64,000 nt of DNA from a virus (IMGVR_UViG_3300035670_000030:79731-143730); one strand, 5' to 3'; numbered from the stretch's first letter, positions 54,694 through 64,000 are shown. Program-made: numbers and translations. Notes: generated by a model not told the origin, from the letters alone.

Positions 54694-55490
54694 GTAAAAA
54701 ATTCTGTTATTGGACAATCAGTTGGGGCGATTATGATTATATATCACAATCCATGGTTAACTCAGCTAGAGAAGTTGGTATCGATGAAGATTTTTATGCT
54801 TTTACAGAAAAACCAATTAAAAATTGCTACAATACAAGTTTAAATAAAAATATAAAATTAGACTCTTTACAATTTTTTAAATTTGAATATTTGAAACACG
54901 AAATTCAAAAATTAGATTATGATTATTTTGTATTTATTGATGCTGATCATTATTTTGTCAGAAAACCAGACATTACACCTTTAGATATAATTAAAGATAG
55001 TCCATGGCATTCGTTTTTAGAAAGCCCGATTAATACTGAAAAGACAAAAAGACCAGATTGGTGGCAAGTACCTAATATTGTAATGACAACATTTATGAAA
55101 AAAAATGGTGTGATGTCTCATGAAATCAGAAATAGTAACGGAGGTTTTTGGATATGTAAAAAACAATTTATTGAACAGGCTTGTAATTTAGCTTATGAGT
55201 TTCATAATAAATTAAGAAATTATAATATAACAGTTCCAGAGGAAGTCTCTATCGCCTATCTTTCTCATTTAATGTCTCCCATCATTCAAGATAGGTATTT
55301 AGAAAATTTTACAAATTATTGGGCTTCTGATTGGACTGAAAATTTTAAAGATCAAGTACCTGAAAATCGACAATGGGAGTATACTTCTTACATGACTTAT
55401 GAAAAAATACAGGTTAGCCCTGCGATTGTTCATGCCATGAGAAGTAAGAAAGCTTTAATTGAATTAGGTAAAAAATATGTTAATTATTAA
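54690..55490 (+). CDS. GT-A-like glycosyltransferase
   Basis: YFVFIDADH (DxD) and NGGFW motifs; ATGA coupling with the upstream stop. Confidence 0.7.
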   Translation: MSKKFCYWTISWGDYDYISQSMVNSAREVGIDEDFYAFTEKPIKNCYNTSLNKNIKLDSLQFFKFEYLKHEIQKLDYDYFVFIDADHYFVRKPDITPLDIIKDSPWHSFLESPINTEKTKRPDWWQVPNIVMTTFMKKNGVMSHEIRNSNGGFWICKKQFIEQACNLAYEFHNKLRNYNITVPEEVSIAYLSHLMSPIIQDRYLENFTNYWASDWTENFKDQVPENRQWEYTSYMTYEKIQVSPAIVHAMRSKKALIELGKKYVNY

Positions 55491-55510
55491 TAAATAATGT
55501 AAATTTATAG

Positions 55511-55909
55511 GTGGCAAGACTATTTTACTTATTATTAATTTTAATAATCATATTGGGCATTTTGCCTAATTATTCGACTAAGCCGCCACAAGAAGATATT
55601 ATTCTTAATAATGGGTGTTTAATTTATGCCATTCAGTATCAACATGCAATAGAGGCTAAAAATATTCTAAATGAGTCCGATGTTTGGGCAAAAATATTAT
55701 TATATAGATTAGTAGGGAATAAATCTGGACATGCTGTTACCTTATATGTTTATAAAAATAAAACATATGTGTATGATCCAGCTTTCGCCAGTTATCAATT
55801 AACAGAATTCCCAGTTTATAATCCTTATAAAATAGTAAGTCTTATGCACCCAATGAGCAAAATTGCTTGGGCTGAATATGCTGAAAATGTTTTGTTGTAT
55901 AACCCCTAG
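55511..55909 (+). CDS. Exported/membrane protein with a papain-like Cys-His-Asp triad
   Basis: N-terminal hydrophobic segment; NGCLIYA...GHAV...YVYDP. Confidence 0.55.
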   Translation: MARLFYLLLILIIILGILPNYSTKPPQEDIILNNGCLIYAIQYQHAIEAKNILNESDVWAKILLYRLVGNKSGHAVTLYVYKNKTYVYDPAFASYQLTEFPVYNPYKIVSLMHPMSKIAWAEYAENVLLYNP

Positions 55910-55945
55910 TTTAGCCTGTTCAAAATTATTGCCTAGCCCCATTCA

Positions 55946-56047
55946 TTAACGAGTGCGGCTGGGAAAAAATTCTGCAAGCATTGCTATATATCCAACACAT
56001 GTAACGCCTAAATTGACCATAGTCATTATAGTAGCAAATAATATCAT
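55946..56047 (-). CDS. 33-aa hydrophobic peptide (not in the ORF track)
   Basis: MILFATIMTMVNLGVTCVGYIAMLAEFFPSRTR*; perfect SD AAAGGAGGTG (56054-56063); TGTAA motif at 56077-56081. Confidence 0.5.
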   Translation of the reverse strand: MILFATIMTMVNLGVTCVGYIAMLAEFFPSRTR

Positions 56048-56137
56048 TCGAAACACCTCCTTTCATATACTATATATTACAGCAATTTAAATGCCAGAAA
56101 AGTTACAATATTGTTTCATTATGAATTAACAACATAT

Positions 56138-57001
56138 CTATTTAATTCTATATTCTTTGCAAATTTTTTTATATAGTGCATACGTATTTTTACGAATTTC
56201 TTTTACCTTTTTTCCATCCCACAAATGGAGTACGCCTACTTTTAAACCATAAGAATAACTAAATTGTGAATATTTAATTGGTATTAAGGTAGTATATGTT
56301 TTTAATTTCTTTTTCATCATTATCAGAAATAAAACTTGCTCAATTATGACTGGGATTGTTGCATAGGCAAGTTCATCGAATGTGGTTTTAAATTTTGTTA
56401 TTAATTCATCGCCATCTAAAAAATCTTTATGTTCTATAATACAATCAATCATTTTTTGCGCGGTTTCATTTATTATTGGAATATTATTTTCTATACAGGA
56501 TCCAAATATAGCAAAATTGACAGACATGAATTTTTGGTCTAAATCTAAATTTAATGATTTATTTAGAACATCTAAGATGACCGCGACCCCATTTTTATAA
56601 AAATCGCATCCCTTTCCAAAGTTTGAACTCCAAGGTTCATCATGGTAGGTAAAAAATGGTGCATTCTTAATTTTTTCTAAAAAAGAGTTATTTAATATAA
56701 AGAAATCAAAATCAATATGTATAAATGGACGTTTTTCCATGCTCATTGTCAAAATTTTACCAGCACTCCATACACTTCTAGGTAATTTATTAGTTATTTT
56801 ATCATCCAATAAAATTATTTCATCGTAAGGAATATTTTTTAAAAGTTCGGCTCCTATTTTATCTGTATATAATACTGTTTTCAATCCCGTATTCTTTTTG
56901 GCGTAATACTGCGAGCAAGTAGCAAATATTTTTGTATCTTCATCAGTAGCATTACTTCCAATTCTATTCCCCAAAAAACTAAATATAATAACTGGTTCCA
57001 T
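56138..57001 (-). CDS. Putative nucleotide-sugar transferase (GT-A-like)
   Basis: LYTD..G, W..GKI, PFIHIDFD (DxD) and IEQ motifs. Confidence 0.6.
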   Translation of the reverse strand: MEPVIIFSFLGNRIGSNATDEDTKIFATCSQYYAKKNTGLKTVLYTDKIGAELLKNIPYDEIILLDDKITNKLPRSVWSAGKILTMSMEKRPFIHIDFDFFILNNSFLEKIKNAPFFTYHDEPWSSNFGKGCDFYKNGVAVILDVLNKSLNLDLDQKFMSVNFAIFGSCIENNIPIINETAQKMIDCIIEHKDFLDGDELITKFKTTFDELAYATIPVIIEQVLFLIMMKKKLKTYTTLIPIKYSQFSYSYGLKVGVLHLWDGKKVKEIRKNTYALYKKICKEYRIK

Positions 57002-57044
57002 TATTTATCCTATATATTACATAAATATTCTTAAATTGTTACGG

Positions 57045-57245
57045 TTAAATTAAATTAATTAAAACAAAATACCCCGACCAAATTTCCAGATTGATTTGTT
57101 TCTTGATTAGTACAATTAGTCTATTTTTTTAAAAAAAGGTAGGGGGTACATATATATAGAAATACCCACTCTTCTATACATAAGAATAAGGATATGTATA
57201 GGAATATAAGAGAGATGGATTAAATTAAATTAATTAAAATAAAAT
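57045..57245. repeat. 26-bp AT-rich direct repeat (TTAAATTAAATTAATTAAAAYAAAAT) at the late/early junction
   Basis: Copies at 57045-57070 and 57220-57245, one mismatch. Confidence 0.85.
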
Positions 57246-57363
57246 GTCTAGAGATTGAAATTTCACCCCCCCGCCACCTAAAATTAAAACGAACGTTCGA
57301 ATTTTTTCAAAAATGGGGAGGGGTTATCAACAAAAATAATTTGCAGAATCTTAAAAAAATCGC

Positions 57364-57391
57364 TTGCTTTTCTGCCGTCCTGTGGTAGAGT
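57364..57391 (+). promoter_or_regulatory. First early sigma70-type promoter (TTGCTT-16-TAGAGT, extended -10), leaderless
   Basis: ATG lies 6 nt after the -10; upstream A-tracts. Confidence 0.75.
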
Positions 57392-57397
57392 GTAGAC

Positions 57398-57580
57398 ATG
57401 AAGAAGAAATACTACACCAGCACAGAGATCATCGAATACGCCGAACAGACTGGCGCGGTCTGCACGTTCGCCAGCCTCAACCTCCGCATCTTCAAGGGAT
57501 GGACTGCGAAGGGTAGCTATGAGGTCAAGTTCCACAGGATCGAGCCTTGCGTGTGGCAGAAAAAAATCGTCAAAAAATAA
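57398..57580 (+). CDS. Small early protein
   Basis: 60 aa, leaderless promoter. Confidence 0.7.
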   Translation: MKKKYYTSTEIIEYAEQTGAVCTFASLNLRIFKGWTAKGSYEVKFHRIEPCVWQKKIVKK

Positions 57581-57615
57581 CTTGACTTTTTAAGGATCTC
57601 TGATAGATTAAAGAC

Positions 57616-57846
57616 ATGAACACATACGATAACGAAATCATCCACAAAGGCAAAGAATACTACCTTTCGACGGAGTATGACTTTGATCACACTGATACCC
57701 TGCAACTCTCTGGCTTTGTCTTGACTGATGAAGACGGCGAAGAAATCTCGCAAGAGGCCTTCGAAGCAAACGAAGATCTTTATGATCACGTTTGCACTAT
57801 CCTTGCAAACGAAAGCGCCGTCTGCTATGGCGGCGCACCTTGCTAA
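57616..57846 (+). CDS. Small, very acidic early protein
   Basis: 76 aa with 18 D/E vs 2 K; promoter TTGACT(57582)-16-TAGATT. Confidence 0.75.
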   Translation: MNTYDNEIIHKGKEYYLSTEYDFDHTDTLQLSGFVLTDEDGEEISQEAFEANEDLYDHVCTILANESAVCYGGAPC

Positions 57847-57850
57847 CACT

Positions 57851-57937
57851 ATGACACACATCATTATGACATACATCGCAGAAGCACTCGCCGTGGTGCT
57901 CATCCTCCTGCTTGGCGTTGCGATCCTGTCGATCTAA
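57851..57937 (+). CDS. 28-aa single-TM peptide
   Basis: MTHIIMTYIAEALAVVLILLLGVAILSI*; stop codon lies inside repeat element 1. Confidence 0.55.
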   Translation: MTHIIMTYIAEALAVVLILLLGVAILSI

Positions 57938-58010
57938 GTTGTTGTAAATCAACAGCTTACACAGGCGCGCCCCGCCGCGCGCCGTAAGTCCTTGATAATG
58001 AAGCACTTAC
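57934..58010. repeat. 77-bp cassette-boundary element, copy 1
   Basis: 27-bp palindrome, 23-bp GC core, 27-bp palindrome. Confidence 0.93.
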
Positions 58011-58097
58011 AAATGTCAAGCAAAAAAGATAAAAAAAATTTTACACAATCGCAAAAAAATCCCTTGCTTTTTTCGTGCGCTGTGCTATTCTATAAAC

Positions 58098-58445
58098 ATG
58101 AAAGATAAAAAACTATTCAACGTCAACGGAACCCTCTGCAAGCTCGTCATCTCGGAGGATCACGAGGATGACTGCATCAAGCTCTGGCACGAACTCGTCA
58201 GCGTAGAGACTGGCAAAACCATCCACACCCTCTCGTGGTCGCCTTACTCCATCCCTTCAGATGAAGAAGTGCAACAGATCATCGACCTCGGTTTGCCAGA
58301 TGGATTGCGTTGGCACAACTCTCATCCCATGTCTGGGATGAACTTCTGCTCTGACATTCTCGCCATGTTCCTCGCTGGTGAGGAGCATCCCCAAGGCGGC
58401 AAGCTGGAGCTTGTGTTCCGTGTGCGTCATGCGAATGCCGCATAA
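58098..58445 (+). CDS. Early hypothetical protein
   Basis: 115 aa; promoter TTGCTT(58064)-16-TATTCT, leaderless. Confidence 0.8.
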   Translation: MKDKKLFNVNGTLCKLVISEDHEDDCIKLWHELVSVETGKTIHTLSWSPYSIPSDEEVQQIIDLGLPDGLRWHNSHPMSGMNFCSDILAMFLAGEEHPQGGKLELVFRVRHANAA

Positions 58446-58488
58446 AAAATCTCTTGCAATAAACCTCAACATCCCATATCCTAACAAT

Positions 58489-58707
58489 ATGAACATCACC
58501 AACGACCACTTCAACACGCAACCGCAATCCGACGAATATGCCAGCGAGCACGAGGAAGTGCGCGGCACGTTTGCGGCTGAACCAGCCGCAGAGCAGGAGC
58601 CGCAACCCTACGATGGGTGGGAAGGCTGCTGGCCTGGGGATGGATCGGGCATGGACGACCTCGCGGACATGCACGCGAACGAAGCCAATGACTACTACGA
58701 CGAGTAG
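58489..58707 (+). CDS. Small, very acidic early protein
   Basis: Start re-called from promoter TTGCAA(58454)-17-TATCCT; 72 aa with 19 D/E. Confidence 0.75.
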   Translation: MNITNDHFNTQPQSDEYASEHEEVRGTFAAEPAAEQEPQPYDGWEGCWPGDGSGMDDLADMHANEANDYYDE

Positions 58708-58833
58708 TGTCATAGTCGTGTCATAATTTTCCGAACGTTTCGATGCGTGTCTCCATGGCGCGGGAATAAACGAAGAGGAAACGAAGCGCCCGTGTTCAAA
58801 CGGGCGTTTCAATTTGCTGAAATTCAATGTTGC

Positions 58834-58910
58834 GTAAACCATTGATATTCAACCACTTACATGGGCGCGCGGGGCGTGCGCGCGTAAGTCCTTGATATTC
58901 AACGACTTAA
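58834..58910. repeat. 77-bp element, copy 2 (core inverted)
   Basis: Same 27/23/27 geometry; core reads GGGGCG instead of CGCCCC. Confidence 0.92.
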
Positions 58911-59034
58911 GTAGTGCCTTACGAACCCGCATGAATACTGGCTTCGCGGGTGTCAAGCTTTTTTTTGCAAAAAAATTTTCATCGAATCGAAAAAAACTGG
59001 TTGCTTTCTGCGCGTTCTGTGGTATTCTGTATAC

Positions 59035-59134
59035 ATTGATAGGACAAGAGGTTTTCCACCGAGAAGGGTTGATCGCCGGAAAAAAGGTGGAAACGTAAGC
59101 GTCCGACCGTAATGGCAAGGCCTACTCCTATCAA
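59035..59134 (+). ncRNA. Candidate structured ~100-nt ncRNA
   Basis: Promoter TTGCTT(59001)-16-TATTCT has no ATG at +1; terminal stem TTGATAGGA/TCCTATCAA; internal stem TTTCCACC/GGTGGAAA. Confidence 0.6.
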
Positions 59135-59178
59135 AACTTTTTCTTGACTCTCACCCTTAACCTGCTAAAATAATCACT

Positions 59179-59370
59179 ATGAATAGAAACTACAGAAGCT
59201 GGCGCGACGAAGAACGCGAAGCAACCCTCGACTACCCGCTGGCCGTGGATCGTGAAGATCCCGCCTACCAGCACAACCCGAACGCCTACGAGCGTGAACT
59301 TGAGCGGTTGAACCGCTTGGAGGGTTGGGAGCGTAGCCGTGGCGGTTACTACCGCCGCAGCTACCGCTGA
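59179..59370 (+). CDS. Small charged early protein
   Basis: 63 aa; promoter TTGACT(59144)-16-TAAAAT. Confidence 0.75.
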   Translation: MNRNYRSWRDEEREATLDYPLAVDREDPAYQHNPNAYERELERLNRLEGWERSRGGYYRRSYR

Positions 59371-59415
59371 AAAAAGTCGCTTGACTTTCAGCCCCATTTC
59401 AACGATACTTTTAAC

Positions 59416-59574
59416 ATGACAGAAAACACCACAACTGGCTGGCCCGAAGTCTGGAACTTCGACGAACCCCAAGACGATAACCTCACGCCCGAACAAGCGT
59501 TCGACATCCTTTTCGGCTATGCCGAAGAACGTCACCGCAACGATCCGTGCGCTCATCCCGAACCCAAACACTAA
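59416..59574 (+). CDS. 52-aa acidic early protein (not in the ORF track)
   Basis: MTENTTTGWPEVWNFDEPQDD...; promoter TTGACT(59381)-17-GATACT. Confidence 0.65.
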   Translation: MTENTTTGWPEVWNFDEPQDDNLTPEQAFDILFGYAEERHRNDPCAHPEPKH

Positions 59575-59578
59575 CACT

Positions 59579-59809
59579 ATGACACAACAAGACGGCATCA
59601 TCAAGTCGCTTGAAACCCTCATCAAGCACGAAAAAACAATCCAAGCTCAAGAGGCTTGCATCGTAGAACTGCGCGACATTCTCGCAAAAGCTCTCCACAC
59701 CATCACCATGCACGAACACAAGCTAAACCTCTTGTGTGGCGTGTCCACCACTCTCGCCGTCGAACTGACTGCGGTGAAAAACAAACAGGTTTCTTTCGGA
59801 GTCAACTAA
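59579..59809 (+). CDS. Small coiled-coil early protein
   Basis: Start re-called at MTQQDG, 4 nt after the upstream stop. Confidence 0.65.
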   Translation: MTQQDGIIKSLETLIKHEKTIQAQEACIVELRDILAKALHTITMHEHKLNLLCGVSTTLAVELTAVKNKQVSFGVN

Positions 59810-59810
59810 C

Positions 59811-59966
59811 ATGAGCAAAATCATTATGACAATCGACACGCGCCCTCTTGCGAGGGCGATTGAACGTAGCGTTCGCAAGACCACTTGCAAGCCGTCCTTC
59901 GCCATGCGTGTCAAGAAAAAATTCGCGCGCAGGGCTAAGTTTTTTCGCGGTTGGTCTGAAGAGTAA
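59811..59966 (+). CDS. 51-aa basic early protein (not in the ORF track)
   Basis: MSKIIMTIDTRPLARAIERSVRK...GWSEE*; stop codon lies inside element 3. Confidence 0.6.
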   Translation: MSKIIMTIDTRPLARAIERSVRKTTCKPSFAMRVKKKFARRAKFFRGWSEE

Positions 59967-60039
59967 AGCGTTGTAAATCAATGACTTACGGCGGCGCGCC
60001 CCGCCGCGCGGCGTAACCCATTGTAAATCAACGACTTAC
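59963..60039. repeat. 77-bp element, copy 3
   Basis: 27/23/27 geometry. Confidence 0.93.
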
Positions 60040-60051
60040 AGAATCATCTAC

Positions 60052-60067
60052 GCAAGTGCCGTGCCAA
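60052..60067 (-). promoter_or_regulatory. sigma54 (RpoN) -24/-12 consensus facing element 3
   Basis: Minus strand reads TTGGCACG-GCAC-TTGC. Confidence 0.6.
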
Positions 60068-60140
60068 GTGTGACTGTGTCATAAAAATAAAAAATAAAAA
60101 AATCTCTTGCTTTTCTGTGGCTCTGTGCTATTCTTTAAGC

Positions 60141-60320
60141 ATGAAAGATAAAGCACCACAAAAAGGCCAACTCTTCGCGGTTGGAACAAAAGTCTATCGC
60201 GTGATCCGCAACGAAGGGGACAAGACCCACGTTCACCATCACGGGCAAATGGCCCTGTTCTACACGCGTCATCTCAAACCTGTCAGCCGTGACCGAGTCG
60301 CGGAATACTTGGGAAAATAG
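60141..60320 (+). CDS. Small basic early protein (possible SH3/KOW-like barrel)
   Basis: Start re-called from promoter TTGCTT(60107)-16-TATTCT. Confidence 0.7.
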   Translation: MKDKAPQKGQLFAVGTKVYRVIRNEGDKTHVHHHGQMALFYTRHLKPVSRDRVAEYLGK

Positions 60321-60356
60321 TTTGACAATCACCACAAAACCTAACAGAATCATAAC

Positions 60357-60545
60357 ATGACTAAAAAACACTTCACCGCCATCGCTGAAATCGTAGGGAA
60401 ACGCTTGCGCGAAAAAATCACCGCGCCAATCGGAGAATACGAGGCAATCGAGTTTGTAGCTAATGACTTGGCCGCATACTTCAAAACTCAAAACTCCAGC
60501 TTTGACAAAAATCGCTTTTTGGAAGCTGTCTATACCCAGAAATAA
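60357..60545 (+). CDS. Small early protein (MTKKHF.AIA...N..FD..RFL.A type)
   Basis: Promoter TTGACA(60322)-17-CAGAAT; helical pattern seen in small phage early proteins. Confidence 0.75.
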   Translation: MTKKHFTAIAEIVGKRLREKITAPIGEYEAIEFVANDLAAYFKTQNSSFDKNRFLEAVYTQK

Positions 60546-60549
60546 TCAC

Positions 60550-60729
60550 ATGAAAAAATACATCACATTCGACCGCATTGCCTATGCAATGTCTCTCGCA
60601 ACCTTCATCTTCATCGCTTGCACACTCTGTGCCGCTTGCGTGAACCTCCACAACAGAACAACCCAAAACCAAAAACAAATGCACGAAGAAGTTCGCGCCA
60701 TGTTTGCTCACGTTGAAAAACCTCTATGA
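60550..60729 (+). CDS. Small single-TM early protein
   Basis: MKKYITFDRIAYAMSLATFIFIACTLCAAC... Confidence 0.6.
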   Translation: MKKYITFDRIAYAMSLATFIFIACTLCAACVNLHNRTTQNQKQMHEEVRAMFAHVEKPL

Positions 60730-60926
60730 TCACGCCCAACATACAAAAAGCCCTCGAATCAAACGGAGTCCGCTTCTATGCAAAAGACTTTCTCATGGAA
60801 GGCTTGCGGAAAGACTGCGTTGACGCCGTGCATGATGCTCAACTTGTTTATGAGTTGCTGAAAGAACGCATGGAAATAATCCTTGACCTTAAACCCAAAT
60901 TCCCCGAAAATCAAAACAATGAGTAA
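60726..60926 (+). CDS. Small early protein
   Basis: 66 aa; ATGA overlap with the upstream gene. Confidence 0.65.
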   Translation: MITPNIQKALESNGVRFYAKDFLMEGLRKDCVDAVHDAQLVYELLKERMEIILDLKPKFPENQNNE

Positions 60927-61110
60927 AGAACAAGTCAAAGCCGTGTGCGACTTCTCGCACGATGTCATAATGAAAGTCAAGAAGCTCGTCGGCATCAAGC
61001 CGCGCCAAGAGTCGCTTCTGTGTCATAGTCTGTGGCACCTCAACACCTCCAACTGGGTTGAGCGCATCACGGCAAATGGCATCATTGATCGCTACATCGT
61101 AAAGCACTAA
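60919..61110 (+). CDS. Small early protein
   Basis: Start re-called from promoter TTGACC(60883)-17-GAAAAT; stop codon lies inside element 4. Confidence 0.65.
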   Translation: MSKEQVKAVCDFSHDVIMKVKKLVGIKPRQESLLCHSLWHLNTSNWVERITANGIIDRYIVKH

Positions 61111-61175
61111 TAATTAAGCACTTAGGGCGGCGCGCCCCCCGTGCGAATGTAAGTCGTTGTAAATCAAACACTTAT
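61099..61175. repeat. 77-bp element, copy 4
   Basis: 27/23/27 geometry, more degenerate. Confidence 0.88.
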
Positions 61176-61293
61176 GAATAGGTGCAAATACTATCATACC
61201 AGTGAGAGAATGTCAAGAATAAAAATGCAAAAAATAAAAATAATTTTCTAAAAAATCTCTTGCGTTTTTTCATATGTGTGCTATCTTGTATTC

Positions 61294-61515
61294 ATGTTAA
61301 GTAAAACACCACAAGTGGGAGATAAGATCATGTATCGGTTCTCCCAAGGCAAAAAGAAATACCCCGCAACAATCATCGCCATCGAGGGCGAACACTGCGT
61401 GTTCACGCTGGATGGTGACTCTTACGATCCTACGCCCACCAAGTGGCCTATGTGGCATGGCCTCCTCTACGACTACGACGAGACCCTTGTCAAGAAAAAA
61501 AGAAAGTGGTGCTAA
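61294..61515 (+). CDS. Small early protein (SH3/Tudor-like pattern)
   Basis: Start re-called from promoter TTGCGT(61260)-16-TATCTT; stop codon lies inside element 5. Confidence 0.7.
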   Translation: MLSKTPQVGDKIMYRFSQGKKKYPATIIAIEGEHCVFTLDGDSYDPTPTKWPMWHGLLYDYDETLVKKKRKWC

Positions 61516-61588
61516 ACCACTAATAATCAAACACTTACGCTAGCGCGCCCCGCCGCGCGGCGTAACTCGTTGAAAATCAACAACTTAG
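61512..61588. repeat. 77-bp element, copy 5
   Basis: 27/23/27 geometry. Confidence 0.92.
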
Positions 61589-61600
61589 GCATTATGACAT

Positions 61601-61616
61601 TCAGAAAGCGTGCCAA
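61601..61616 (-). promoter_or_regulatory. sigma54-like motif facing element 5 (degenerate -12)
   Basis: Minus strand reads TTGGCACG-CTTT-CTGA. Confidence 0.4.
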
Positions 61617-61699
61617 GTGTGACTACCAAGCACAAAAAAATATTTTTTAAATCGCAAAAAATTCCTTGCATTTTTGGGAACCTGTGGTATTCTTACAAC

Positions 61700-61939
61700 A
61701 TGAACATCACCAAAGAAGAACTCCGTGACTCTCTCGTTAACGCTCGCGCCGCCTTGGCTCTGCAAGTCCGCGACCATTACAAACACCGCAACGGCTTTTG
61801 CGGAAAATCTTTTCGCGGTATGATCCGCGAAAATCTCCGCGCTTTGCGCTTGTTGGGTAATCTCGAAACCATCGACGCGAAAGTCTACACGTTCGACGCT
61901 CGCATCTTGGGTCGTGTCAAAAAAGCTCTTGCCAAGTAA
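61700..61939 (+). CDS. Small basic early protein
   Basis: Start re-called from promoter TTGCAT(61666)-16-TATTCT. Confidence 0.7.
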   Translation: MNITKEELRDSLVNARAALALQVRDHYKHRNGFCGKSFRGMIRENLRALRLLGNLETIDAKVYTFDARILGRVKKALAK

Positions 61940-61963
61940 AGCAAACTCTGACAAAATCACCAC

Positions 61964-62647
61964 ATGAAACTACTAAGCACCAATAACACCAAAATCAAAA
62001 AAGGCGAAAAACTCGGCTGGCGCACCTACGGCTTGTCGCTTTCTCCCGCTGGCAAGTCTGGAAAACAATTCTGTCCGCATCGTTCGGCTGGCTGTGAGTT
62101 TGCCTGTCTCGACACTTCGGGCATGGGCATTTTCTCAAACGTGCAAGACGCTCGCCTTGCAAAGTCGCGTTTCTTCATTGATAGCCGCAACGATTTTCTC
62201 GCACAGTTGCATAAAGAATTGCACAACGCTGAAAAGTGGAGCGCAAAAAATCAAATGCCCGTTGCTTGCCGTCCGAATGTCCTTTCTGACCTTCCTTTCC
62301 ATAAGCTCATCGACATGGCACGCTTTCCATCAATCCAGTTTTACGATTACACGCCGAACCTTCAACGCATGATGCAGTTTCTGAATGGCGAACTACCGAA
62401 AAATTACCATCTGACTTTTTCGCGCAAAGAGGATAATCAGCATCGTGTTCATGCGGTTGTTGCCGCTGGTGGCAACGTGGCGGTTGTCTTTAATGAGTTG
62501 CCCGAAACCTATCTCGGCAAGCCTGTCATAAACGGAGACGAAAGCGACTTGCGTTTTCTCGACCCGCAAGGCGTCATCGTCGGACTCAAAGCAAAGGGCA
62601 AAGCTCTAAAAGATCAGTCTGGATTCGTGGTGCAAGTTGGTGTATAA
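61964..62647 (+). CDS. Gp88-like phage protein (Cys-containing)
   Basis: C....S.GC...CL..SG.G, R.NVLSD, QFYDYT, NYHLTFS and GDESDLRF.D motifs; promoter TTGCCA(61929)-17-CAAAAT. Confidence 0.75.
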   Translation: MKLLSTNNTKIKKGEKLGWRTYGLSLSPAGKSGKQFCPHRSAGCEFACLDTSGMGIFSNVQDARLAKSRFFIDSRNDFLAQLHKELHNAEKWSAKNQMPVACRPNVLSDLPFHKLIDMARFPSIQFYDYTPNLQRMMQFLNGELPKNYHLTFSRKEDNQHRVHAVVAAGGNVAVVFNELPETYLGKPVINGDESDLRFLDPQGVIVGLKAKGKALKDQSGFVVQVGV

Positions 62648-62656
62648 TGAGCAACT

Positions 62657-62728
62657 ATGACAATCCTAACCTTGCTCGCTGTGTGTGGCTTGTGTGCTTT
62701 TGCAATTTATAACAACGAAAAAAAATGA
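62657..62728 (+). CDS. 23-aa hydrophobic peptide
   Basis: MTILTLLAVCGLCAFAIYNNEKK*; ATGA-coupled to the next ORF. Confidence 0.4.
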   Translation: MTILTLLAVCGLCAFAIYNNEKK

Positions 62729-62883
62729 CCTTCAATCTAATCGCACGAAAAAATCTGTTTCGCTTGTCTGAATACTTTTTCCACTTGGCTCTGTGGTGGG
62801 AACGCGCTGGCGTTATGACACTCTCTAACGGGTTTGTCATAGCGTGGGAGTATTGCCTCGACGCACGCGATAAGTTGAGATAA
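62725..62883 (+). CDS. 52-aa early protein (not in the ORF track)
   Basis: MTFNLIARKNLFRLSEYFFHLALWW...DKLR*; stop codon ends 1 nt before element 6. Confidence 0.6.
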   Translation: MTFNLIARKNLFRLSEYFFHLALWWERAGVMTLSNGFVIAWEYCLDARDKLR

Positions 62884-62884
62884 C

Positions 62885-62961
62885 GTAAAGCGTTGATAAT
62901 CAACGACTTACGGCGGCGCGCCCCGCCGCGCTGCGCAAGTGCTTGATATTCAATGACTTAC
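62885..62961. repeat. 77-bp element, copy 6
   Basis: 27/23/27 geometry. Confidence 0.93.
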
Positions 62962-62973
62962 GCAATATGCTAC

Positions 62974-62989
62974 GCAGGAAGCGTGCCAA
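62974..62989 (-). promoter_or_regulatory. sigma54 -24/-12-like motif facing element 6
   Basis: Minus strand reads TTGGCACG-CTTC-CTGC. Confidence 0.55.
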
Positions 62990-63090
62990 CATAGGCTTAA
63001 ACGAGCGTTTGAAAATTCGTCAACAAAAATAGTTTCTAAAAATGCAAAAAAAATCGTTGCACTCTCATGCCCTGCTGCTATTCTTTACCC

Positions 63091-63225
63091 ATGCAAGCGA
63101 ACTCCATCATCAACGACGACTTCAACACGCAAATCCAAAGCGACGAATTCGCTTCGGAATATAATGCTTGGCTCGACGAGCAGGAACTGCAATACTGGCG
63201 CGAAATCGAAGCGAAAGGAAACTAG
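63091..63225 (+). CDS. 44-aa acidic protein, paralogous to the N-terminus of 58489-58707
   Basis: NDDFNTQIQSDEFASE vs NDHFNTQPQSDEYASE; promoter TTGCAC(63057)-16-TATTCT. Confidence 0.7.
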   Translation: MQANSIINDDFNTQIQSDEFASEYNAWLDEQELQYWREIEAKGN

Positions 63226-63229
63226 TTTT

Positions 63230-63421
63230 ATGACAAACACAAACCCACTGGAAGGCTTCGTCTCCGTTTGCTGCGGAGCCGAACACGACATCAACGCCGA
63301 ATACCATATGCTCAACGAAAGCATCGTGGGCGGCTGCTCGGTCTGCGGACGTTACTCGGAGTTTGACATCTTTGAGAACTTCGTAGAAAATTCTCTTGAC
63401 CTCGAAACCTCTAACCTCTAA
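63230..63421 (+). CDS. Small acidic Zn-finger-like protein
   Basis: SVCCGA...GCSVCG; start re-called at MTNTNP. Confidence 0.65.
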   Translation: MTNTNPLEGFVSVCCGAEHDINAEYHMLNESIVGGCSVCGRYSEFDIFENFVENSLDLETSNL

Positions 63422-63433
63422 TCTCTCAACTCT

Positions 63434-63880
63434 ATGAACCAAGCAAACATCGTAATCAGCGCATACGGCAACGGCATCGCTGTCGGACTCAACGGAACCA
63501 AAGAAGAAATCGAACGCACGTTCAATCGCTTCTTTAACTGGGGCGCAACTGGCATCGGTGAACTCGGCAGTTACTTGCACGAACTCTCTGACAACTTCGC
63601 TTACTTCCTCTCGACGGAAGCGGATATGCTTCGCGCTATGACATACGAAACTATGACACGCTGGCAAGACTCACCTGTGAGCGAACAATACAAAGCGCGT
63701 CCGCGCTTCCACAAGAAACCGAACGGCAAAAAGTTTCGCGCTGACGCAGAGCAAGCTGCGCGTGACGAATACGACTCGTTCCCACGCGAGAGCTTCATGC
63801 TGTTCGCTAAAACTCCCACTCATATCTATCAGCAACTCGATGGAGGCGCGCCCGATTGGGTGAGCGAGACAGAGGACTAA
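63434..63880 (+). CDS. Early hypothetical protein
   Basis: 148 aa; promoter TTGACC(63396)-17-TAATCT. Confidence 0.75.
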   Translation: MNQANIVISAYGNGIAVGLNGTKEEIERTFNRFFNWGATGIGELGSYLHELSDNFAYFLSTEADMLRAMTYETMTRWQDSPVSEQYKARPRFHKKPNGKKFRADAEQAARDEYDSFPRESFMLFAKTPTHIYQQLDGGAPDWVSETED

Positions 63881-63953
63881 TCTCTGTCATAGTCGTGTCA
63901 TAGTAAACGCTCGTGCAAACGGGCGTTTTACTTTTGCCCAAAATGAATGTGTT

Positions 63954-64000
63954 GTAAAGCGTTGAAGATCAAGCACTTACGGGCGCGCGCCCCGCCGCCC
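63954..64000. repeat. 77-bp element, copy 7 (truncated by the window end)
   Basis: Left palindrome 63954-63980 plus GC core. Confidence 0.9.

Follow-up and report, generated by a model that had tools for sequence, protein, structure and literature searches.

By what kind of recognition do the repeated elements act that divide the early genes of a large phage into small cassettes? The DNA in question, here called the window, is a stretch of 64,000 nucleotides (IMGVR_UViG_3300035670_000030:79731-143730) which forms the final 64 kb of one linear IMG/VR phage contig of 143,730 bp (82% complete according to CheckV). Its right end carries seven copies of an element that is composed of a 27-bp arm, a 23-bp GC core, and a second 27-bp arm, 77 bp in total. 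An earlier reading made from the sequence alone had noticed these elements, had suggested that selection acts on their structure or on binding, and had proposed that they are cassette boundaries used for recombination or scaffolds of a nucleoprotein complex. We put the chances at about even that the 77-bp repeats would be nucleoprotein boundary modules of duplex DNA, organized by a protein of the integration host factor (IHF) type, and that recombination at the repeats would be a consequence.

Results

The element family

The sequence itself, a repeat finder, and an alignment all place the seven copies where the sequence-only reading had found them, and the 27+23+27 layout is free of indels. 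The core pattern occurs five times, compared to no occurrence in 100 shuffles, and the six complete window copies score 55–77 bits with a sequence model of the family (E 1e-15 to 1e-22). Applied to the whole 143.7-kb genome, the same model finds no copy outside the GC-rich tail, that is the last 6.7 kb. The start-to-start spacing of the window elements is 413–1373 bp. In one respect the earlier description has to be amended: judged from the core and the start of the conserved tail (see below), copy 2 is inverted and does not share the common orientation.

The family is large. An exact-pattern scan of IMG/VR yielded 25 loci on ∼17 contigs with 118 copies, 97 of them distinct. The viral and metagenome set holds at least 236 distinct copies at no fewer than 98 loci, with at least 120 metagenome stretches matched. 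The set of 236 copies was ascertained by the core and four AA/TT dinucleotides alone and not by the columns of the IHF consensus. The 77-bp geometry is kept without any indel in 236/236 copies. Three complete relatives (166–178 kb) and one nearly complete relative have 11–14 copies each according to the sequence model, and the copies are always confined to one contiguous block of ∼15 kb, which is likewise GC-rich. A scan of 185,579 species genomes of bacteria and archaea brought up real copies solely in four contigs of 1.2–1.9 kb inside metagenome-assembled genomes, and these contigs are probably mis-binned phage fragments.

The orientation of the copies, as given by the core, is ∼85–90% uniform, and the inverted orientation of element 2 is shared by its orthologues in the relatives. 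Within one genome, two copies are identical at 52–56 of the 77 bases, orthologous copies at 60–70, and no concerted evolution or homogenization of the copies within genomes is seen. The copies are old and diverged; selection on fixed positions and not recent duplication is therefore indicated, in line with the earlier reading.

Some relatives have gene-free clusters (L007 12244–12660, L011 2684–3100, and L016 3369–3615) in which two to three elements follow each other with a spacing of exactly 170 bp and in alternating orientation. They recall the alternating repetitive extragenic palindromes (REPs) of bacterial interspersed mosaic elements (BIMEs). At L003 (∼845) and L016 (∼11742) a tRNA-like sequence with a T-arm motif adjoins an inverted element within the early block.

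The arms match the IHF consensus

The conserved, the degenerate, and the free columns of the arms coincide with those of the IHF consensus WATCAANNNNTTR (cited e.g. in PMC9452768, PMC10380432), and each arm comprises two such sites in head-to-head arrangement. The left inner site matches WATCAANNNNTTR exactly in 159/236 copies and with at most one mismatch in 227/236. In both arms of 236/236 copies the R position is A or G; A or T occupies the W position in 93%, and T16, C17, A18, and A19 are conserved to 94–100%. Best kept are the inner sites, whose TTR ends point toward the core; in the outer arms the consensus positions are still 95–100% conserved, whereas the neighboring positions are relaxed. 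All 12 exact consensus matches in the GC-rich tail of the window lie inside elements, and the density of such matches is 1.8/kb in this tail versus 0.21/kb in the AT-rich rest of the window. The center of the core, GCGCGCCCCGCC, is asymmetric and nearly invariant, and C37–C39 are invariant.

Neither the contig nor the four relatives that were searched, of which three are complete, yielded an HU/IHF gene (PF00216). As the phages encode no HU/IHF homologue, the candidate reader of the arms is a host protein. The footprint of IHF is ∼35 bp. Two such footprints would leave only the central ∼13 bp uncovered, where the core is asymmetric and conserved best.

Base pairing is not conserved

The palindromic appearance of the element raises the question whether its fold or its letters are conserved. 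Among the 97 distinct copies of the exact-pattern scan, a three-hairpin model pairs 73.1% of the cells compared to 73.6% after column shuffling, and a single long hairpin pairs 69.5% compared to 72.6%, which is below all 500 shuffles; RNAalifold returns 0 pairs. With 236 copies, none of 1000 shuffles is as low as the observed central (inner-arm), right-arm, or outer pairing. For the left arm, pairing is marginally higher than in the shuffles (72.5% vs. 72.0%), a value that 50 of 1000 shuffles reach, and the core stem, in two registers, pairs no better than shuffled columns. For columns 23/55 there are 62 one-sided changes and 0 compensations. In 2/236 copies the variable positions of the two inner arms agree, with 48.6 expected, and the combination of GTCG and GTGC, in either order, is found at these positions in 104/236 copies.

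The six complete window copies have different minimum-energy RNA folds, namely three hairpins, one long hairpin, or partial structures (z −1.5 to −6.2); the fold of copy 4 is matched or beaten by 12/200 shuffles. The one long bulged hairpin that the sequence-only reading had proposed for the whole 77 nt is the minimum-energy fold in just three of the six copies, and the proposed selection on structure is not supported, as there is no covariation and pairing is under chance. The palindromic look is due to conserved letters and not to conserved pairing, and complementarity of the arms is in fact avoided in the 77-bp clade. Since the pairing tests are negative and complementarity is avoided, recognition as duplex DNA is indicated.

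Related elements in other phages

A sister clade (L259 8–2554, IMGVR_UViG_3300042868_011620) has elements of 75 bp (27+21+27) with a different core and the same arm consensus. Its arms are near-perfect palindromes, and arm complementarity is not avoided there. Similar 27-bp palindromes without the GC core are found in AT-rich phages. Judged by these sequences, the sister clade and the AT-rich phages favor a widely conserved reader of the arms and a clade-specific role of the core. They also suggest that twin-palindrome modules of this kind may be widespread among large uncultured phages. We found no description of such a module in the literature searched.

Stop codons, terminators, and promoters

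Each window element occupies the gap that separates the final stop codon of a unit from the promoter that follows. In the relatives, open reading frames (ORFs) end at element columns 2–4 in 14 cases, at columns 10–12 in six, and 1–2 nt upstream of the element in ten. Canonical terminators precede only elements 2 and 7, and five of the seven window copies are without a separate terminator. A terminator scan does not flag the elements as a class, and most copies have no U-tract. Direct repeats of the TGTCATA type lie just before the terminators preceding elements 2 and 7 (58706–58724 and 63866–63890), and ATGACA-type motifs (repeat family D12) recur elsewhere in the early block.

That each complete copy is followed by a strong promoter, as had been claimed, is borne out by our analysis: the −35 box begins 53–95 bp past the end of the element. 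The early promoters of the window are of a strong sigma70 type with a TTGC-type −35 box, a 16-nt spacer, an extended −10 box, and an A/T-rich upstream region. In the relatives the promoter is found 17–140 bp downstream of the element, including a class with the −35 box only 17–20 bp away. The arrays of the relatives G001–G003 (L030–L033) have in their first half promoters with a TTGC-type −35 box, a 16-nt spacer, and an extended −10 box, 53–97 bp from the element. In their second half the −35 box is of TTGAC type, the spacer has 17 nt, and the distance is 17–20 bp. The two promoter classes along the array may be two temporal classes.

On one side 51 of 96 copies are followed by a conserved tail of ∼28 bp, in the window copies 3, 5, and 6. 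The reverse complement of the tail matches TGGCACG-N4-YTGC, a −24/−12 motif of sigma54 type, which stands at a fixed offset in 23–25 copies and is directed into the element. The strict motif has three occurrences in the contig, two of them at elements 3 and 6. Two more sigma54-type motifs lie away from the elements, at genome position 45274 (+) and at window position 56082 (−). Between the promoters at 59001 and 59144 there are ∼110 nt of non-coding DNA (59030–59145) with a 9-bp closing stem, and this DNA is conserved in the relatives. A structured RNA leader was considered here and rejected, as the z-score of the fold, −1.6, is not significant. The coordinates of the elements and of their surrounding features are compiled in Table 1.

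Table 1. Elements and associated features of the early-gene block (window coordinates; ORF, open reading frame).
Feature	Position	Strand	Remarks
Element 1	57934..58010	+	68.6 bits; stop of upstream ORF is the element's TAA (columns 2–4)
Element 2, inverted	58834..58910	-	64.7 bits on -, 51.9 on +; core GGGG on + strand
Element 3	59963..60039	+	73.8 bits; TAA of the element (columns 2–4) is stop of upstream ORF
Element 4, most degenerate (lowest score)	61099..61175	+	54.7 bits; upstream ORF ends at columns 10–12
Element 5	61512..61588	+	stop of upstream ORF is the element's TAA (columns 2–4)
Element 6, nearest to family consensus	62885..62961	+	77.3 bits; three exact IHF-consensus boxes
Element 7, cut by contig end at column 47	63954..64000	+	40 bits, model positions 1–46
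Canonical terminator (hairpin and T run) before element 2	~58787-58815		terminator scan flags 58787-58806
Canonical terminator before element 7	63905-63928		terminator scan
GC-rich early-gene block, contains all elements	57300..64000	+	~48% GC; every gene small and on + strand
One-gene cassette between elements 4 and 5	61176..61511	+	promoter 61260-61287, ORF 61294-61515
Early promoter after element 1	58064..58091	+	TTGCTT, 16-nt spacer, TG, TATTCT; A/T-rich upstream
Promoters of the same type	57364, 59001, 60107, 61260, 61666, 63057		repeat families D3, D5, D7
Tail of element 3	60040..60068	+	sigma54-type TGGCACG-N4-TTGC at 60052, - strand
Tail of element 5	61589..61617	+	-24-like box present; -12 box TGA instead of TGC
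Tail of element 6	62962..62990	+	sigma54-like motif at 62974, - strand

Cassette turnover at the elements

A map of ORF clusters over nine arrays shows ∼14 cassettes in largely collinear order, and the relatives differ by entire cassettes, each lying between two elements. L006 also has the one-gene cassette that separates elements 4 and 5; G001, G002, and G003 do not have it. At other junctions, additional cassettes or empty intervals occur in other relatives. In the pairwise alignment with G001 homology restarts at the first or second base of element 5, and in further pairwise cases it resumes exactly at the first base of an element. In 26 of 383 cases the end of a long alignment is no more than 3 bp away from an element edge in each of the two genomes, compared to 0.07 in shifted controls. 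The breakpoints in the relatives, which had been suggested as a check, and the element-bounded indels thus uphold the cassette boundaries. Many other breakpoints fall inside cassettes, so that the elements are not the sole crossover points.

A dedicated recombination system, for which the earlier reading had suggested a search, did not come to light: no tyrosine or serine recombinase and no Y1/HUH transposase (PF00589, PF00239, PF01797) is matched in G000–G004, three complete genomes among them. Target duplications are not visible in the sequence. The turnover pattern fits general recombination between dispersed repeats and not a dedicated site-specific system; such recombination has been described for the promoter early stem-loop (PeSL) repeats (PMC2839356, PMC4122927).

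The contig joints 61586→57966 and 61586→59977 were considered as evidence of excised circles and rejected, since their shorter side of 31–34 nt amounts to repeat ambiguity. The loose ends at the backward contig joints match paralogous elements. The contig itself ends inside element 7, which suggests that the assembly broke at the repeat.

The phage and its early-gene block

The phage is uncultured and its genome size is put at ∼170 kb. The GC content is ∼30% across the contig and ∼48% in the terminal ∼6.7 kb (from ∼57,300). The step is sharp (window 57250–57320) and lies where the early-gene block begins; to its left, two A/T-only direct repeats of 26 bp (57045–57070 and 57220–57245, 96% identical) enclose 149 bp. 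A chimeric assembly at the step was rejected, as bridging contigs from three subsurface-metagenome runs cross 57,300 without differences and the relatives have the same GC-rich block. A possible cause of the step is that the early genes, which are read before the tRNAs of the phage are made, follow the composition of the host. In the runs X1–X3 (window 55000–64000) the contigs of the GC-rich block have ∼1.5–1.6 times the depth of the AT-rich part, an excess for which GC bias, terminal redundancy, or co-occurring relatives could account.

Protein family searches leave most early proteins without a known family, and the sole match among the proteins of the GC-rich tail is the product of 61964–62647, which belongs to GP88 (PF17338). 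The remaining contig is phage-like with baseplate and leucine-rich repeat proteins, glycosyltransferases, a DnaE-type polymerase, ribonucleotide reductase, 11 tRNAs, and a transfer-messenger RNA, the latter of the generic one-piece type (RF00023) that gives no clue to the host. The best cultured match is 28% identical, there is no close cultured relative, and no DNA relative was found among the INPHARED phages. A search of the window against Rfam gave 0 matches at the gathering threshold.

Discussion

A proposed boundary module read as duplex DNA

From the family and its geometry, its confinement to the early block, the lack of constraint on pairing, the agreement of the arms with the IHF consensus, the position between stop codon and promoter, and the breakpoints at the element edges we infer the binding of IHF or of another protein, as well as the effect that this binding would have. 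We suggest that the element is read as double-stranded DNA and that each 27-bp arm presents two overlapping, head-to-head IHF-type sites. Two molecules of a DNA-bending protein, the likeliest candidate being the IHF of the host, would bind 50 bp apart and fold the DNA sharply on either side of the GC box. One such module stands at the 3′ end of every early transcription unit, 17–100 bp before the next strong host-type promoter. Most likely it would serve as an architectural boundary which insulates adjacent strongly transcribed units, as a roadblock or as a supercoil barrier, and it might in addition or instead shape the upstream DNA of the next promoter. The ∼85–90% uniform orientation is as expected of an asymmetric functional site. 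General recombination between the copies would add or remove whole cassettes, as the module recurs 11–14 times in one 15-kb block, and the modules would thereby double as seams of cassette turnover. Of the two alternatives in the earlier reading, the nucleoprotein scaffold is thus the best mechanistic reading and the cassette boundary stands as an evolutionary pattern, whereas selection on structure is not supported.

Several observations weigh against this proposal. The element–promoter gaps fall into classes of 17–20, 53, 67–68, 76–78, 82–85, and 95–97 bp, and a single helical register of element versus promoter, which a simple upstream activator would predict, is not seen. The GC box is sequence-specific within the 77-bp clade and different in the 75-bp clade. 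The assignment to a putative host IHF comes from the match to a consensus. As the copies are kin by descent, the shuffle statistics overstate their independence. Finally, the arms conserve positions beyond the IHF consensus (G1, A22, C23, C27), which could point to a different or an additional protein, and the five window copies without a separate terminator could owe this to a terminator or attenuator role in RNA; both points lead to rival explanations.

The arms might be operators of a dimeric regulator encoded by the phage, and their likeness to the IHF consensus would then partly be a coincidence. Such a protein could, for instance, shut off or coordinate all early units at once, much as happens through the dispersed repressor operators that some phages and plasmids have. 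In favor of a regulator, the arms are palindromic and keep the extra positions just named, their 50-bp spacing is strict, the elements are phage-borne apart from the four tiny and probably mis-binned contigs, and a regulator could hide among the early proteins without known family. We nevertheless regard this idea as rather unlikely, as the W, the R, and the four free positions are placed exactly as in the IHF consensus and the inner half of the palindrome is better kept than the outer one, unlike in a symmetric dimer site. In addition, the same arm consensus occurs with another core in the 75-bp clade and without the GC core in AT-rich phages, and the sites lie 17–100 bp upstream of the −35 box with no promoter overlap. 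A role in RNA, as 3′-end hairpins that terminate or attenuate transcription, stabilize the mRNA, or are cut by RNase III, has models in REP, in the stem–loop of PeSL, and in the R-sites of T7. The position at the 3′ ends of the units, often right at the stop codon, the want of another terminator in five of seven window copies, and the short T run after the right arm in the promoter-proximal class would fit such hairpins, and every copy can fold. There is, however, no covariation and no consensus structure: pairing is below chance, one-sided changes are never compensated, and complementarity of the inner arms at the variable positions is almost never seen. The folds vary by copy, and that of copy 4 does not stand out from its shuffles. 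Moreover, most copies have no U-tract, the terminator scan does not single out the elements, and the two copies directly behind canonical terminators would be redundant. We therefore consider an RNA-level function unlikely.

Recombination or mobility could also be the primary function, with the elements as sites of a dedicated recombinase or as ends of small mobile cassettes resembling miniature inverted-repeat transposable elements or PeSL mini-circles. Indels of whole cassettes are bounded by elements with breakpoints exactly at the element edges, ORFs run into the element and use its stop codons, and the empty intervals and the alternating 170-bp clusters suggest that elements can multiply without genes. 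Yet the three complete relatives encode neither a tyrosine/serine recombinase nor a Y1 transposase, no target duplications are visible, each cassette has a promoter of its own, and from phage to phage the cassette order is for the most part collinear. Two copies from the same genome are only ∼70% identical, without homogenization, and many breakpoints lie inside cassettes. Above all, strict positions over 236 diverged copies need a function that reads the sequence, for which exchange driven by homology alone is insufficient. This explanation seems to us quite improbable.

The IHF-type boundary module can be extended, speculatively and on the strength of sequence comparison, to a general device of many large uncultured phage clades in its 77-bp and 75-bp versions. 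Two U-turns made by host IHF would clamp a clade-specific GC box, together with the ∼28-bp sigma54-like tail in half of the copies, and would act as a topological and transcriptional insulator for a dozen very strong tandem host-type promoters. We offer this extension tentatively and rather doubt than expect it; if it were true, the avoidance of arm complementarity in the 77-bp clade would be selection that keeps the module duplex.

It is poorly understood how large lytic phages organize and insulate batteries of strong early promoters, and also how their early gene sets, often host-takeover or anti-defense genes, are turned over so fast. The at least 236 distinct copies span freshwater, subsurface, and other metagenomes, and the elements can be used as practical markers of early-gene islands and of cassette boundaries in uncultured phage genomes.

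Comparison with known systems

The sequence-only reading had compared the elements to integron attC sites, PeSLs, and BIMEs and had seen no match in sequence; some of the features that define each of these systems are missing here. Further comparable systems are the IHF-assisted phage promoters and the nucleoprotein complexes flanked by IHF (lambda pL, Mu Pe, lambda attP, and cos), each of them known as a single locus whose sites are single and asymmetric. Like them, the elements carry IHF-consensus matches ahead of strong early promoters, with a central specific site that two bends would flank. Unlike in these loci, the sites are doubled head to head, exactly 50 bp apart, and present 11–14 times per genome. 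The RNase III sites of the T7 early genes are pairing-dependent RNA hairpins. They are likewise repeated, structured-looking elements between early genes; in the elements described here, however, pairing is not conserved and each unit has its own promoter.

With attC sites the elements share imperfect inverted repeats located 3′ of small gene cassettes, with upstream ORFs that often end inside. On the contrary, attC sites work as a folded single strand with the IntI tyrosine recombinase, are variable in length, have extrahelical bases, and belong to promoterless cassettes, whereas here no integrase (PF00589) is found, the length is fixed at 77 bp, pairing is not constrained, and every cassette has a promoter.

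The element is a member of neither PeSL nor RIB/RIP/BIME-1, though it resembles both. PeSLs (Arbiol et al. 2010, PMC2839356; Comeau et al. 2014, PMC4122927) are also repeated intergenic modules among small early genes, with an upstream stop codon followed by a strong sigma70-type promoter that has an A/T-rich upstream stretch, and with a G/C-rich motif. As with PeSLs, indels and replacements between the relatives are bounded by the repeats. However, a PeSL combines a promoter with a stem–loop terminator which overlaps or abuts it at variable positions, whereas the element is a rigid 77-bp unit with no promoter inside, no pairing constraint, and four IHF-type boxes. A GC core is present; its pairing is not conserved, and most copies have no U-tract. 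PeSLs are located in hyperplastic regions of T4-type myoviruses, while the phage studied here has a DnaE-type polymerase and cultured hits of at most 28% identity. The PeSL of T4-type phages has been the only described model of such an organization, and the 77-bp element is a second, sharply defined, and very common module.

According to the account given in PMC3333891, which cites Boccard and Prentki 1993, the BIME-1/RIB/RIP repeats of E. coli have the order REP–IHF site–REP. In the same account BIMEs are proposed to be terminators, mRNA stabilizers, binding sites of gyrase and IHF, and topological insulators. Both kinds of repeat are composites of IHF sites and GC-rich palindromic DNA at the 3′ ends of transcription units. 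The order is reversed, as IHF-type double sites flank a GC box in the phage element and two REPs flank an IHF site in E. coli. In addition, the E. coli repeats are dispersed in many copies over a bacterial chromosome, whereas the element is phage-borne, absent from the bacterial chromosomes scanned, fixed in length, and without sequence similarity to these repeats, and no Y1 (RAYT) transposase is associated with it, PF01797 having no match in G000–G004. If the arms recruit host IHF, the 77-bp element would be a counterpart, in phages, of the E. coli RIB/RIP repeats, which have long been without an explanation, and the idea of an IHF-based topological insulator would become directly testable.

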